Part shown: positions 1 to 6,183 of the stretch, piece after piece | How the letters are laid out: each line of letters begins with the position of its first letter | How positions within the stretch are numbered: position 1 is the first letter of the stretch | The notes under the pieces: generated by a model | Database searches by the model: none | What the model saw: the letters and a program-made list of their open reading frames with translations, nothing else | Told to the model about the DNA's origin: nothing | Position numbers and translations under genes: made by a program | IMG/VR virus record: IMGVR_UViG_2579778660_000006 | Length of the DNA: 6,183 nt | Source: a virus | Lineage: Duplodnaviria > Heunggongvirae > Uroviricota > Caudoviricetes | Direction: 5' to 3' (one strand)

Positions 1-906
1 GTGGATAGCGCACGCGCCCTTATTGCCCGGGGATGGGGAGTAAGCTTAGTCAGCCGTTGTCTCCGGGTGTCGCGTGCGCAGTTGCACGTCATTCTCAGAC
101 GAACCGATGACTGGATGGATGGCCGCCGCAGTCGTCACACTGATGATACGGATGTGCTTCTCCGTATACACCATGTTATCGGAGAGCTGCCCACGTATGG
201 TTATCGTCGGGTATGGGCGCTGCTTCGCAGACAGGCAGAACTTGATGGTATGCCTGCGATCAATGCCAAACGTGTTTACCGGATCATGCGCCAGAATGCG
301 CTGTTGCTTGAGCGAAAACCTGCTGTACCGCCATCGAAACGGGCACATACAGGCAGAGTGGCCGTGAAAGAAAGCAATCAGCGATGGTGCTCTGACGGGT
401 TCGAGTTCTGCTGTGATAACGGAGAGAGACTGCGTGTCACGTTCGCGCTGGACTGCTGTGATCGTGAGGCACTGCACTGGGCGGTCACTACCGGCGGCTT
501 CAACAGTGAAACAGTACAGGACGTCATGCTGGGAGCGGTGGAACGCCGCTTCGGCAACGATCTTCCGTCGTCTCCAGTGGAGTGGCTGACGGATAATGGT
601 TCATGCTACCGGGCTAATGAAACACGCCAGTTCGCCCGGATGTTGGGACTTGAACCGAAGAACACGGCGGTGCGGAGTCCGGAGAGTAACGGAATAGCAG
701 AGAGCTTCGTGAAAACGATAAAGCGTGACTACATCAGTATCATGCCCAAACCAGACGGGTTAACGGCAGCAAAGAACCTTGCAGAGGCGTTCGAGCATTA
801 TAACGAATGGCATCCGCATAGTGCGCTGGGTTATCGCTCGCCACGGGAATATCTGCGGCAGCGGGCTTGTAATGGGTTAAGTGATAACAGATGTCTGGAA
901 ATATAG
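1..906 (+). CDS. insD: IS2 transposase OrfB (InsD), DDE integrase-core domain; in intact IS2 it is expressed as an OrfAB fusion by frameshifting
   Basis: 301-aa [24 protein letters not shown]...[11 protein letters not shown], recognised as IS2 InsD. Stop codon 904-906 lies inside the right terminal repeat, as expected for IS2. Confidence 0.93.
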
Positions 907-917
907 GGGCAAATCCA
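877..917. repeat. IS2 right terminal inverted repeat (about 41 bp, extent approximate)
   Basis: Terminal sequence ...TAGGGGCAAATCCA ends at 917. IS2 terminal repeats are about 41 bp. The left repeat is outside the window, so pairing cannot be shown here. Confidence 0.7.
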
Positions 918-1098
918 CCCACTCCCCCAAACCAATAAAAAAGATGCCGGAGGACAAAAAACCCAATGGAACAACGGGATATCTGTCAAAAAAAGACGTT
1001 CCATTAAAGACAAACAACGCAGCGCCAACAACTGTAAGCGCTTTATACCAGTAATCAATTTTCATGTTCTTAAGCGGATTTATTGGTGGTTGCGACAT
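918..1098 (-). pseudogene. 5' fragment (first 60 codons) of a small membrane-protein gene with two predicted transmembrane helices, interrupted by the IS2 insertion
   Basis: Minus-strand ORF starts at ATG 1098-1096 and reads MSQPPINPLKNMKIDYWYKALTVVGAALFVFNGTSFFDRYPVVPLGFLSSGIFFIGLGEW. It then runs straight into IS2 terminal-repeat sequence at 917, where the frame continues 13 codons to a stop inside IS2. Two clean hydrophobic segments support a real gene. An SD-like AAGGA sits 11 nt upstream of the ATG. Identity unknown. Confidence 0.4.
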
Positions 1099-1375: not shown

Positions 1376-1428
1376 TTTCTGGTGACGTTTGGCGGTATCA
1401 GTTTTACTCCGTGACTGCTCTGCCGCCG
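1376..1428 (+). ncRNA. dicF: DicF-family Hfq-dependent small RNA (prophage-encoded antisense inhibitor of ftsZ translation)
   Basis: TTTCTGGTGACGTTTGGCGGTATCAGTTTTACTCCGTGACTGCTCTGCCGCCG matches my recollection of the 53-nt E. coli DicF over its whole length, with possibly one difference at the last base. It is followed by TTTTT. Gene order dicF-dicB-ydfD and the ~174 bp dicF-dicB spacer match the Qin prophage dic operon. Confidence 0.85.
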
Positions 1429-1433
1429 TTTTT
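1391..1433 (+). terminator. DicF 3' stem-loop plus U-tract (intrinsic-terminator-like 3' end)
   Basis: GGCGG (1391-1395) pairs with CCGCC (1423-1427), enclosing an internal structured region, followed by T5 at 1429-1433. Confidence 0.55.
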
Positions 1434-2072: not shown

Positions 2073-4544
2073 ATGAGTAAAGTCTTTATTTGCGCCGCTA
2101 TTCCTGACGAACTGGCAACAAGGGAAGAAGGCGCTGTGGCTGTAGCCACAGCCATTGAAGCTGGCGACGAACGCCGTGCTCGAGCAAAATTTCACTGGCA
2201 ATTCCTGGAACATTATCCGGCTGCTCAGGACTGCGCTTATAAATTTATTGTCTGCGAGGATAAACCTGGCATACCCCGCCCTGCCCTCGATTCATGGGAT
2301 GCTGAATATATGCAGGAAAACCGCTGGGATGAGGAGTCTGCTTCTTTTGTCCCGGTTGAGACTGAATCCGATCCGATGAACGTCACTTTTGACAAGCTGG
2401 CCCCTGAAGTACAGAACGCTGTCATGGTTAAGTTCGACACATGTGAAAACATCACCGTTGATATGGTTATTAGCGCACAGGAATTGTTGCAGGAAGACAT
2501 GGCAACATTCGACGGACATATCGTTGAAGCGTTGATGAAAATGCCAGAAGTTAACGCCATGTATCCGGAGCTTAAGTTGCACGCCATTGGGTGGGTTAAG
2601 CATAAATGTATTCCTGGTGCTAAATGGCCCGAAATTCAGGCAGAGATGCGCATCTGGAAAAAACGTCGCGAAGGTGAACGCAAGGAAACCGGAAAATACA
2701 CGTCTATTGTTGATCTCGCCCGCGCCAGAGCCAATCAACAGTACACTGAAAATTCAACAGGAAAAATCAGCCCGGTCATTGCTGCCATTCATCGCGAATA
2801 CAAGCAGACATGGAAAACACTGGATGACGAACTGGCCTACGCTCTCTGGCCTGGTGATGTGGATGCCGGAAACATTGACGGCAGCATCCATCGCTGGGCA
2901 AAAAATGAAGTTATCGATAACGACCGCGAAGACTGGAAGCGTATCTCGGCATCAATGCGCAAACAGCCTGATGCCCTTCGCTACGACCGCCAAACTATTT
3001 TTGGCCTTGTCCGTGAACGTCCGATCGACATTCACAAAGATCCCGTAGCACTGAACAAATATATCTGCGAATACCTGACGACAAAGGGCGTGTTTGAGAA
3101 TGAAGAAACAGACCTGGGCACTGTTGATGTTCTCCAGTCATCAGAAACACAAACTGATGCAGTGGAAACTGAGGTATCTGATATCCCAAAAAATGAAACC
3201 GCGCCGGAAGCTGAACCATCTGTAGAGCGTGAGGGGCCGTTCTATTTCCTCTTCGCAGATAAGGACGGAGAAAAATACGGTCGCGCAAACAAACTTTCTG
3301 GTCTGGATAAGGCACTGGCTGCTGGCGCCACTGAAATCACAAAAGAAGAATATTTTGCCCGAAAAAATGGCACATACACGGGCTTACCGCAAAATGTAGA
3401 TACCGCTGAAGATTCAGAACAACCAGAGCCGATAAAAGTTACCGCTGACGAAGTAAACAAAATTATGCAGGCAGCCAATATCATCCAGCCTGACGCCGAT
3501 AAGTTGCTTGCTGCATCACGTGGTGAATTTGTTGAAGGGATTAGTGACCCGAATGATCCGAAATGGGTTAAGGGGATCCAGACCCGCGATTCTGTGAACC
3601 AGAACCAGCATGAATCGGAACGGAACTACCAAAAAGCGGAACAAAACAGCCCAAATGCGTTACAAAACGAGCCAGAAACGAAACAGCCTGAATCAGTGGC
3701 GCAACAGGAAGTGGAAAAAGTCTGCACCGCCTGCGGTCAGACCGGCGGCGGCAACTGCCCTGATTGTGGCGCGGTAATGGGCGACGCAACATACCAGGAA
3801 ACATTCGATGAAGAGTATCAGGTTGAAGTTCAGGAAGATGATCCGGAGAAAATGGAAGGCGCTGAACATCCACACAAGGAGAACACTGGCGGCAATCAGC
3901 ATCACGATAGCGATAATGAAACTGGCGAGACGGCAGATCACTCAATTAAGGTGAACGGTCATCACGAAATCACATCCACCAGCAGGACGTGTGACCATCT
4001 AATGATCGACCTTGAAACCATGGGAAAAAATCCTGATGCCCCGATCATCTCAATAGGTGCAATATTTTTCGATCCGCAAACCGGAGATATGGGACCGGAA
4101 TTTAGTAAGACTATCGATCTGGAAACTGCTGGCGGAGTCATTGATCGGGACACCATTAAATGGTGGCTTAAGCAATCACGCGAAGCGCAATCTGCCATTA
4201 TGACCGATGAAATCCCGTTAGATGATGCACTGTTACAATTGCGGGAATTTATCGACGAAAACTCCGGTGAATTTTTTGTTCAGGTCTGGGGAAATGGAGC
4301 CAACTTCGACAACACGATTTTGCGCCGTTCATACGAACGGCAGGGGATCCCCTGCCCGTGGCGTTACTACAACGATCGCGATGTACGCACAATCGTTGAG
4401 CTGGGGAAAGCCATAGACTTCGATGCCAGAACGGCTATTCAATTCGAAGGTGAGCGCCATAATGCACTTGATGACGCCCGTTACCAGGCAAAATACGTTT
4501 CAGTTATCTGGCAAAAACTGATCCCGAGTCAGGTTGATTCTTAA
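2073..4544 (+). CDS. Large prophage early-region protein (823 aa): N-terminal domain of unknown function, acidic linker, Cys4 zinc ribbon, His-rich linker, C-terminal DEDDh (DnaQ/RNase T/Rv2179c-like) 3'-5' exonuclease domain
   Basis: Uninterrupted 2472-nt ORF with GAGG about 10 nt upstream of the ATG. The C-terminal ~180 aa carry DEDDh motifs in the right order: Exo I MIDLETMG (D646, E648), Exo II WGNGANFDNTIL (D746), Exo III HNALDDARY (H796, D801). CTACGQTGGGNCPDCG (aa 551-566) is a CxxC-N7-CxxC ribbon. Residues 477-506 (KLLAASRGEFVEGISDPNDPKWVKGIQTRD) resemble a segment I associate with Rac RecE, and the N-terminal ~300 aa resemble what I recall of the truncated K-12 ydfE product. Both recollections are unverified. 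Confidence 0.9.
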   Translation: MSKVFICAAIPDELATREEGAVAVATAIEAGDERRARAKFHWQFLEHYPAAQDCAYKFIVCEDKPGIPRPALDSWDAEYMQENRWDEESASFVPVETESDPMNVTFDKLAPEVQNAVMVKFDTCENITVDMVISAQELLQEDMATFDGHIVEALMKMPEVNAMYPELKLHAIGWVKHKCIPGAKWPEIQAEMRIWKKRREGERKETGKYTSIVDLARARANQQYTENSTGKISPVIAAIHREYKQTWKTLDDELAYALWPGDVDAGNIDGSIHRWAKNEVIDNDREDWKRISASMRKQPDALRYDRQTIFGLVRERPIDIHKDPVALNKYICEYLTTKGVFENEETDLGTVDVLQSSETQTDAVETEVSDIPKNETAPEAEPSVEREGPFYFLFADKDGEKYGRANKLSGLDKALAAGATEITKEEYFARKNGTYTGLPQNVDTAEDSEQPEPIKVTADEVNKIMQAANIIQPDADKLLAASRGEFVEGISDPNDPKWVKGIQTRDSVNQNQHESERNYQKAEQNSPNALQNEPETKQPESVAQQEVEKVCTACGQTGGGNCPDCGAVMGDATYQETFDEEYQVEVQEDDPEKMEGAEHPHKENTGGNQHHDSDNETGETADHSIKVNGHHEITSTSRTCDHLMIDLETMGKNPDAPIISIGAIFFDPQTGDMGPEFSKTIDLETAGGVIDRDTIKWWLKQSREAQSAIMTDEIPLDDALLQLREFIDENSGEFFVQVWGNGANFDNTILRRSYERQGIPCPWRYYNDRDVRTIVELGKAIDFDARTAIQFEGERHNALDDARYQAKYVSVIWQKLIPSQVDS

Positions 4545-4555
4545 TGTTCAACTGT

Positions 4556-4587
4556 CGCCGGTTGTGACTGGTATTCTGCAACCGGCG
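4556..4587 (+). other. GC-rich stem-loop (9-bp stem CGCCGGTTG/CAACCGGCG, 14-nt loop) just downstream of the 823-aa gene; not followed by a U-tract
   Basis: 4556-4564 is the exact reverse complement of 4579-4587. No T-run follows, so it is not a canonical intrinsic terminator. It may be an RNA processing or stability element, or a protein binding site. Confidence 0.4.
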
Positions 4588-4616
4588 CTCGTCTAATGTA
4601 AGAGATAAAGAAATCG

Positions 4617-4868
4617 ATGAGCGAAGTAATCATGATTGTCTCTCCCGGCAAATGGGTATCCGAAGAGCAGTTAATTGCGCTGAAAGGAATAAAAAAAGGT
4701 ACGTTAAAAAAGGCCCGGGAAAAATCGTTTATGGAAGGAAGGGAATATAAGCATGTCGCTCATGACGGTATGCCATGGGATAACAGTCCATGCTTTTACA
4801 ACCTGGAAGAAATTGATCGCTGGATTGAGCGCCAGGCATCAGCAAGACCAAGACGTCATCTTACTTGA
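4617..4868 (+). CDS. xis: Excisionase-like protein (lambda Xis-type winged-helix recombination directionality factor), 83 aa
   Basis: Small ORF immediately upstream of and co-oriented with the integrase. The segment KKAREKSFMEGREYKHVAHDG resembles the conserved GREY(L/K) wing region of lambda Xis. The start is uncertain: ATG 4617 has a weak RBS, and ATG 4632 is an alternative. Confidence 0.65.
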   Translation: MSEVIMIVSPGKWVSEEQLIALKGIKKGTLKKAREKSFMEGREYKHVAHDGMPWDNSPCFYNLEEIDRWIERQASARPRRHLT

Positions 4869-4887
4869 CTAAAAGCCACACTAACTA

Positions 4888-6183
4888 ATGAGAGAAGTTG
4901 AAATGAAATATCCGACAGGCGTGGAAAACCATGGAGGGAAATTACGTATCTGGTTTGTTTATAAAGGCGTAAGAGTCAGGGAAAACCTGGGGGTTCCTGA
5001 CACAGCAAAAAACAGGCGCGTTGCAGGTGAGCTACGCGCCTCTGTTTGTTACGCAATAAAAACTGGTGTTTTCGACTATGCAAAACAGTTTCCCTCCTCA
5101 CGCAATCTGGAAAAATTTGGTGAGGCCCGACAAGATTTAACCATAAAAGAACTGGCTGAAAAATTTCTGGCACTGAAAGAAACTGAAGTCGCAAAAACAT
5201 CACTCAACACATACCGTGCCGTCATCAAAAATATCCTGAGCATAATCGGTGAAAAAAATCTTGCCTCATCGATTAATAAAGAAAAATTACTGGAGGTTCG
5301 TAAAGAGCTACTGACTGGATACCAGATCCCCAAAAGTAACTATATTGTTACACAACCAGGGAGATCGGCTGTAACTGTAAATAATTACATGACAAATCTT
5401 AACGCCGTGTTCCAGTTTGGTGTTGATAACGGTTACCTGGTAGATAACCCGTTTAAGGGGATCTCGCCATTAAAGGAATCAAGAACCATTCCGGATCCTC
5501 TTTCGCGGGAGGAATTCATCCGTCTTATCGATGCGTGCAGAAATCAGCAAGCCAAAAATTTATGGTGTGTTTCTGTTTATACTGGCGTTCGCCCTGGTGA
5601 GCTGTGTGCACTTGGATGGGAGGACATAGATCTGAAAAATGGAACAATGATGATCAGGAGAAATTTAGCAAAAGACCGTTTCACGGTACCAAAAACACAG
5701 GCGGGAACCAATCGGGTCATTCATCTTATTAAGCCAGCAATCGACGCTCTCCGGAGTCAGATGACATTAACGAGACTGAGCAAAGAGCATATCATTGATG
5801 TTCACCTCAGAGAGTATGGCAGAACAGAAAAACATAAATGCACCTTTGTTTTTCAACCTGAAGTGTCAGCGAGAGTAAAAAATTATGGTGACCATTTTAC
5901 CGTTGACTCAATAAGGCAGATGTGGGACGCAGCGATAAAACGTGCCGGACTCCGCCATCGAAAATCATATCAGTCGAGACATACTTATGCCTGCTGGTCG
6001 CTGACAGCTGGTGCTAACCCGGCATTTATAGCAAACCAGATGGGCCATGCAGATGCGCAAATGGTATTTCAGGTATACGGAAAATGGATGTCTGAAAACA
6101 ATAATGCACAGGTAGCTTTGTTAAATACACAGTTAAGCGAGTTTGCCCCAACCATGCCCCATAACGAAGCAATGAAAAATTAA
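4888..6183 (+). CDS. int: Tyrosine site-specific recombinase (phage integrase) with N-terminal arm-binding-type domain, intact
   Basis: 431-aa ORF. The C-terminal catalytic region has the tyrosine recombinase signature in order: R in VYTGVRPGELCALGWEDIDL, K in KTQAGTNRV, HxxR in SRHTYA, and the H...Y box MGHADAQMVFQVYGKW. The N-terminus KYPTGVENHGGKLRIWFVYKGVRVRENLG is typical of the arm-binding domain of enterobacterial prophage integrases. The true start may be ATG 4903 (MKYPTG...), which has a slightly better RBS. The stop is the last codon of the window. Confidence 0.95.
   Translation: MREVEMKYPTGVENHGGKLRIWFVYKGVRVRENLGVPDTAKNRRVAGELRASVCYAIKTGVFDYAKQFPSSRNLEKFGEARQDLTIKELAEKFLALKETEVAKTSLNTYRAVIKNILSIIGEKNLASSINKEKLLEVRKELLTGYQIPKSNYIVTQPGRSAVTVNNYMTNLNAVFQFGVDNGYLVDNPFKGISPLKESRTIPDPLSREEFIRLIDACRNQQAKNLWCVSVYTGVRPGELCALGWEDIDLKNGTMMIRRNLAKDRFTVPKTQAGTNRVIHLIKPAIDALRSQMTLTRLSKEHIIDVHLREYGRTEKHKCTFVFQPEVSARVKNYGDHFTVDSIRQMWDAAIKRAGLRHRKSYQSRHTYACWSLTAGANPAFIANQMGHADAQMVFQVYGKWMSENNNAQVALLNTQLSEFAPTMPHNEAMKN

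Follow-up and report, generated by a model that had tools for sequence, protein, structure and literature searches.

The N-terminal region of a Qin-type prophage exonuclease as a candidate accessory platform related to the N-terminus of RecE

The gene described here lies in IMGVR_UViG_2579778660_000006, a 6183-base stretch of Caudoviricetes DNA that forms the left arm of a lambdoid E. coli prophage of the Qin type; the whole stretch is referred to below as the window. Its 823-codon open reading frame (ORF) encodes the 'exonuclease' of Qin-type prophages and is the full-length version of the gene that K-12 has as ydfE. Our analysis concerns codons 1-345, which occupy exactly positions 2073-3107. 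The region they encode comprises three folded units, A1, A2 and B, which are related over their whole length to the N-terminus of RecE and which are shuffled among unrelated effector domains in phage proteins. Based on these observations, we tentatively propose, with confidence a little short of even, that residues 1-345 are an accessory, partner-binding platform for phage recombination or end-processing enzymes.

Architecture and conservation of residues 1-345

An AlphaFold2 model of residues 1-345 was built from a 51-sequence alignment of diverse homologues. A reading made from the sequence alone, without database searches (hereafter the sequence-only reading), had described a single domain of about 345 residues with well-behaved, non-repetitive sequence. 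The model agrees with the latter description. Its mean predicted local distance difference test (pLDDT) score is 92.5, values exceed 95 for residues 1-206 and 246-340, and scores drop below 50 only at residues 224-235. Intrinsic disorder of residues 1-206 and 246-340 was ruled out by these scores, and disorder was accepted for the linker only. The end assigned to the region also falls at a natural boundary (residues 340-345): a helix (residues 324-338) closes module B and an acidic low-complexity stretch follows, with a net charge of -13 over residues 341-385. The region is not one domain, however. It consists of a small alpha/beta sub-domain (A1), a helical sub-domain (A2), a basic flexible linker and a five-helix domain (B), and these make up two modules (Table 1). 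The net charge is -10 for A1, -4 for A2 and -2 for B, and that of the whole protein is -65. In one relative that is 83% identical to the window protein (P0001), A2 carries a tandem duplication of about 45 residues (residues ~145-235), in which VDGHIVEALMKMPEVNAMYPELKLHAIGWVKHKCKPGAKWPEIQA occurs twice.

Structure searches with residues 1-345 matched the helical parts to generic helical and winged-helix domains, namely those of extracytoplasmic function (ECF) sigma factors, the winged-helix domains of nucleotide-binding leucine-rich repeat (NLR) and origin recognition complex (ORC) proteins, RuvA and phi29 p16.7. Foldseek against BFVD returned no match with an E-value of 1e-3 or better, and only uncharacterised phage proteins of ~65 residues were retrieved. 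The sequence-only reading had named a confident match to a well-characterised domain, or evidence of disorder, as findings that would speak against it; the structure searches gave no such match, and the AlphaFold2 model gave no such disorder in the folded units.

Conservation, whose mapping had been suggested as a check, was assessed from the ratio of nonsynonymous to synonymous substitution rates (dN/dS), computed for the window against each of two diverged alleles; comparison with L010 was uninformative because that copy is interrupted or mosaic. Ratios of 0.05-0.09 were obtained for A1, A2 and B (0.08-0.09 for A2 and B), as opposed to ~0.9 for the linker (against L009, the sole comparison permitting an estimate) and ~0.45 for residues 346-640. 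The folded units A1, A2 and B are under strong purifying selection. G, P, A, L and W predominate in the conserved columns of residues 1-345, alongside a few scattered charged positions (E46, E62, D76, E166, R203, E253, D262, R296 and R306). No catalytic-looking polar constellation was present among them, in keeping with the earlier statement that this part of the protein has no catalytic motif.

The sequence-only reading could not place the region in a family from motifs alone; it can now be placed. In precomputed annotation, all close homologues, including ones that are 99% identical over residues 1-345, carry both PF27430 YdfE_N and PF27432 YdfE_C, and sequence similarity makes it nearly certain that the window protein belongs to these families. 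Both are newer Pfam entries without functional information, named after the product of the K-12 YdfE pseudogene, whose residues 1-256 match the window protein at 255 of 256 positions. Residues 1-345 gave no match to PADLOC, to PDB sequences or to our local copy of Pfam, which is without the PF27430 and PF27432 models. Module B apparently lies outside YdfE_N and YdfE_C. Neither the local copy nor the precomputed annotation offers a Pfam model for it, and a relative whose B is 66% identical to that of the window (P0132) is listed only with PF06630 and PF16473. PF06630 (Exonuc_VIII) itself had no match in the window protein at E-values up to 1. A search of NCBIfam gave a single match within residues 1-345, to residues 246-340, and this match was RecE-like. 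In the literature, ydfE was mentioned only in incidental listings, and no papers joining Rv2179c with prophage were found.

Relationship to RecE and exchange of effector domains

The NCBIfam match places module B at positions 271-366 of the exodeoxyribonuclease VIII model NF007259/PRK09709 (E 2.7e-12), and BLASTP aligns the window protein to Rac RecE from residue 262 (RecE residue 278) onwards. No direct BLAST match to RecE was obtained for the A part, whose relation to RecE is seen only by profile-profile comparison. An hhalign comparison of a module A profile with one made from RecE-type N-termini gave a probability of 98.2% (E 2.7e-14, 204 columns). After removal of a chimeric sequence and of the linker columns it was 98.1% (E 1.1e-13), with window residues 15-204 aligned to RecE residues 12-221. 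An unrelated alignment, used as a negative control, gave 0.1%. The A part is very divergent, with 8-9% identity to RecE as aligned by hhalign. For comparison, PF06630 spans only residues 2-178 of RecE. Taken together with B, which matches directly, this makes residues 1-345 as a whole the counterpart of RecE residues ~12-366, that is, of the RecE N-terminal region.

Other features of the window protein are also shared with RecE. In both, the N-terminal region is followed by an acidic linker, a DKLLAASRGEF...IQTRD motif and a CxxC-x7-CxxC element, and both genes are located in a lambdoid early-left operon near xis and int. The CxxC-x7-CxxC element lies inside the acidic low-complexity region and is a possible zinc ribbon. 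The effectors differ. RecE has a PD-(D/E)XK 5'-3' nuclease (PF12684/DUF3799, residues 615-850), whereas the window protein has no RecE-type PD-(D/E)XK domain and instead ends in a PF16473 DEDDh 3'-5' exonuclease domain of the DnaQ type. In addition, the window gene has no adjacent recT-type annealase gene and is directly followed by xis and int. The full-length score against NF007259/PRK09709 was 281 bits (model positions 271-602), under the curated cut-off of 1269 bits, and the window protein is therefore not a RecE orthologue. The Rv2179c-like DEDDh domain was the sole match of the ORF in the local Pfam copy, and its motifs are intact: DLE at 646-648, NGANFD at 741-746 and HNALDD at 796-801 (D646/E648, D746 and H796/D801). 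This bears out the view that residues 1-345 are the N-terminal partner of a nuclease. A weak match of the C-terminal domain to a PDB sequence, the exodeoxyribonuclease 8kel, was also obtained. The only DNA-level similarity to Rac recE is in window positions 3497-3939 (residues 476-623), which are 78% identical to recE nucleotides 1365-1765. This segment ends just before the nuclease domain and looks like a recombination joint for nuclease domain exchange.

Only 168 relatives were found among the 1.84 billion cluster representatives searched. Modules and effectors were mapped in representatives of 50%-identity clusters that were at least 600 residues long. Two evolutionary modules, A (residues 1-~230) and B (residues ~231-345), occur independently of each other in these relatives. 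No other module of the family is shared as widely as B, which sits at varying positions in many large proteins. An A-type or RecE-type N-terminus, usually together with B, is joined to a DEDDh, a RecE-type PD-(D/E)XK or a single-strand annealing protein (SSAP)-like C-terminus, and nearly all of the combinations are found. A small conserved unit at residues ~386-436 goes with N-termini of the A type irrespective of the effector attached; in relatives, a portion of it matches phrog_6784, whose function is unknown. Residues 349-461 are conserved together with A-type proteins.

The third effector, a C-terminal domain of ~270 residues (PHROG 2489-type), is the commonest partner of A, being present in 17 of the 29 A-containing representatives. 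A fold search assigned this domain to the Rad52/Mgm101 fold and not to that of a nuclease; a sequence-profile search of the PDB gave no match, so that only the fold search resolved it. In PHROGs, proteins with this C-terminus are labelled 'exonuclease'. We predict from the fold assignment that many relatives annotated as 'exonuclease' are Rad52-fold annealases. The PHROG 2489 'exonuclease' resembles the window protein in its N-terminal A(+B) modules and its operon position and differs from it in having a Rad52/Mgm101-fold C-terminus in place of a DnaQ-type nuclease. The description of 'RecE-2' of lambdoid phages in a recent study (Genome Res 2025, PMC12315714), as distantly RecE-related, of unknown role and with no recognisable nuclease domain, fits PHROG 2489-type proteins, and the two may be the same.

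Wherever there was sufficient flanking DNA, the gene was the last large one of the lambdoid early-left operon and adjoined xis and int; this was true of the DEDDh, annealase and uncharacterised C-terminus types. Passages of the same study describe sporadic DnaQ-type nuclease genes very near int (PMC12315714). The near-int position of these early-left operon genes agrees with that of the window gene, while those passages do not discuss a RecE-like N-terminal region, which the window protein possesses. In a relative with A, B and a PD-(D/E)XK domain (P0128), an overlapping RecT-family gene comes next. At one annealase-type locus (L004), the next gene is an overlapping member of the Sipho_Gp157 family (8202-8702; PF05565, E 3e-43), which may be a functional partner.

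Possible roles of the N-terminal region

Since the same modules are shuffled among three kinds of effector, the role of the platform is most likely independent of effector chemistry. We envisage residues 1-345 as a non-catalytic platform of three domains that is tethered by the long, acidic, flexible region of residues 341-641 to an effector, in this case a DnaQ-type 3'-5' exonuclease. Lambdoid phages recombine this platform with nucleases of the RecE type (5'-3') or the DnaQ type (3'-5') and with an annealase of Rad52 fold. By binding a partner, which might be a host protein, a phage protein or the platform itself, it would localise or oligomerise an early-left-operon enzyme, or couple it to partners or to substrate ends. 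We infer both the partner-binding mode, as opposed to DNA binding, and the nature of the partner. A precedent may be provided by RecE. Its N-terminal region, described as 'of unknown function' in a 2023 review (PMC11611040), is dispensable for nuclease activity, and full-length RecE specifically raises recombination between two linear molecules (PMC11611040, PMC5861427). The sequence-only reading had expected a specificity, sensing or targeting function for residues 1-345. Our data are compatible with a role as an accessory or in targeting. Specificity for the window nuclease has become less plausible, as the same modules precede nucleases that work with opposite polarity as well as an annealase that is not a nuclease; because the effectors vary in this way, a role generic to phage recombination or end processing is more likely than one in DEDDh substrate specificity.

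Several observations weigh against the platform proposal. The functional inference is by association throughout, with no partner, interaction or phenotype known for residues 1-345. The AlphaFold2 predicted template modelling (pTM) score is 0.53, which leaves the mutual arrangement of A1, A2 and B undefined. For the A part, the analogy with RecE is one of distant homology. Finally, no annealase gene was found near DEDDh-type genes, including those of the window and of HannyBb, and for this reason 'recombination' may be the wrong frame for the window protein.

Among the alternatives, it is unlikely, in our estimation, that the N-terminal region is a DNA-end binding or synapsis module in which B and the basic linker (residues 207-245) in particular would hold or bridge ends and feed them to the attached effector. 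Such a module would fit the preference of full-length RecE for linear-linear recombination (PMC11611040, PMC5861427), and the basic character of the linker (pI, isoelectric point, 9.7), the conserved arginines R296 and R306 of B and the weak helix-turn-helix-like structural matches are all consistent with contacts to DNA. However, A1, A2 and B all range from acidic to neutral, a composition that argues against a classical DNA-binding domain. Moreover, conservation is lowest in the basic linker, with dN/dS ~0.9 and pLDDT below 60.

We think it quite unlikely that the region is an oligomerisation or auto-regulatory module that sets the assembly or activity of the enzyme, for example by keeping a toxic effector inactive until a signal or partner is met. 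Rad52-type annealases form rings. Other relatives of the effector types also act as oligomers, the RecE nuclease domain packing as a tetramer (PMC11611040), and the strongly conserved platform is always N-terminal and on a long flexible tether, as such a module might be. Nevertheless, one regulatory domain would hardly suit three unrelated folds, and no coiled coil or known oligomerisation motif was found in the AlphaFold2 model of residues 1-345.

A host-directed function, by which the acidic N-terminal region would bind, neutralise or hijack a host factor (a nuclease, single-stranded DNA-binding protein or the replisome) or act in exclusion or defence, partly independently of the enzyme, is very unlikely given the lack of a PADLOC match and the consistent covalent fusion to DNA enzymes, which suggests a role in cis, even though the protein is very acidic, like DNA-mimic inhibitors, its early-left operon neighbours are host-directed (dicB, the ydfD lysis protein and kil-type genes), and a gam-type gene is absent from these modules. 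An anti-RecBCD decoy role was ranked low: constructs for RecET recombineering continue to include Red-gamma, an inhibitor of RecBCD that lets linear DNA persist (PMC5861427), and this need suggests that RecBCD is not neutralised by full-length RecE.

Prophage setting, the K-12 remnant and significance

The coordinates of the features are collected in Table 1. The window is covered to at least 80%, at one place, in 1643 complete E. coli genomes, and the sequenced phages HannyBb, PhiR42_1, Tritos, Evi and mEp460 carry the window gene with 96-99% identity over residues 1-345.

Table 1. Features of the 6183-base window and of the 823-residue protein
Feature	Window position	Strand	Residues	Remarks
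Right part of IS2	1-918			insD ORF 1-906; upstream of the dicF-dicB-ydfD-exonuclease block
dicF small RNA (sRNA) region	~1379-1431			aligned to K-12
dicB	1603-1791
ydfD	1788-1979
823-codon ORF, Qin-type prophage 'exonuclease'	2073-4544	+	1-823	phrog_2082 aligned over 1-822
Sub-domain A1	2073-2366	+	1-98	small alpha/beta unit; Pfam YdfE_N
Sub-domain A2	2367-2690	+	99-206	Pfam YdfE_C; helices 111-121, 129-140, 146-156, 165-178, 185-205
Basic flexible linker	2691-2807	+	207-245	pLDDT 49-75, pI 9.7
Module B	2808-3092	+	246-340	helices 247-257, 270-281, 286-296, 306-314, 324-338
Last base shared with K-12 ydfE	2840	+	256 (end of codon)	in K-12 followed by IS2E, then intQ'
Acidic, largely low-complexity middle region	3093-3995	+	341-641
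Small conserved unit	3228-3380	+	~386-436	GPFYFLFADKDGEKYG...KEEYFARKNGTY
RecE-like motif		+	476-506	DKLLAASRGEF...IQTRD
CxxC-x7-CxxC element	3723-3767	+	551-565	CTACGQTGGGNCPDC; conserved in RecE
DEDDh (DnaQ-like, Rv2179c-like) 3'-5' exonuclease domain	3996-4511	+	642-813	PF16473, E 3e-67
Excisionase gene (xis)	4617-4868
Integrase gene (int)	4888 to window end

The ORF starts at the same ATG as in the K-12 ydfE annotation, and K-12 DNA is 98.2% identical to the window over positions 1159-2839. The sequence-only reading held that residues 1-345 survive in K-12 as ydfE and that this provides a ready-made natural truncation. Survival is partial: residues 1-256 are kept and module B is lost. The Qin prophage of K-12 has the arrangement ydfE(residues 1-256)::IS2E(707 bp)::intQ' (L001 4844-5550, in place of window 2840-5023), in which an IS2E fragment 100% identical to window 212-918 joins ydfE to a 5'-truncated intQ. 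The alignment indicates that this arrangement is an IS2-associated deletion of window positions 2840-5023, which took away the remainder of the exonuclease gene together with xis and 136 nucleotides from the start of int. The remnant consists of A1, A2, the linker and the first ~10 residues of B, followed by an IS2-derived tail. It has no functional B and is not a clean N-terminal-domain construct. If the host-directed function were true after all, the K-12 fragment could still be active.

Some further differences among copies were noted. Inside the block shared with K-12, the dicF region is yet not an exact copy of the 53-nucleotide K-12 dicF. The ydfD product ends in ...VIHQYNIEIPAGL, compared with HQDNI in K-12 DNA, which amounts to a D-to-Y substitution close to the C-terminus of the lysis protein. 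In a related genome (L003), the ydfC site is taken by a complete IS3-family transposase gene, and ydfB is truncated. These IS2 and IS3-family elements may influence how the operon downstream is transcribed. The exonuclease gene is broken in several prophage copies, with pseudogenes at 1801-4268 in L009 and 1801-2831 in L010. A frameshift follows codon 506 in PPompW_EH1846 and an interruption follows codon 326 in phage 204576; both breaks lie past the N-terminal modules.

As an object, the region is ordinary. It is already catalogued, in Pfam as YdfE_N and YdfE_C, in PHROG 2082 and in RefSeq as 'exonuclease', and well over a thousand E. coli genomes carry this domain, whose function is unknown. 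Our contribution lies in a map of the domains, the finding that the region as a whole is homologous to the N-terminus of RecE, the recognition of the unannotated module B as a common core, and the Rad52-fold annealases predicted among 'exonuclease' relatives. The domain boundaries and natural chimeras are now defined for experiments in viable phages, HannyBb and mEp460 among them.

The RecE/RecT pair is a mainstay of recombineering, and the ~600 N-terminal residues of RecE aid linear-linear cloning by a function that has been unknown for decades. A bolder extension of the platform proposal, which we regard as doubtful, is that A1-A2-B is a portable 'recombination hub' of lambdoid phages that docks on a host or phage factor or on DNA ends and thereby confers on any attached end-processing enzyme one shared capability in vivo, for example the boost of linear-linear recombination known from full-length RecE. 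If this were true, the 600-residue N-terminus of RecE, which has long lacked an explanation, would be accounted for. A new class of annealases, now mis-annotated as 'exonuclease', would come to light, and recombineering design would gain a transferable module.

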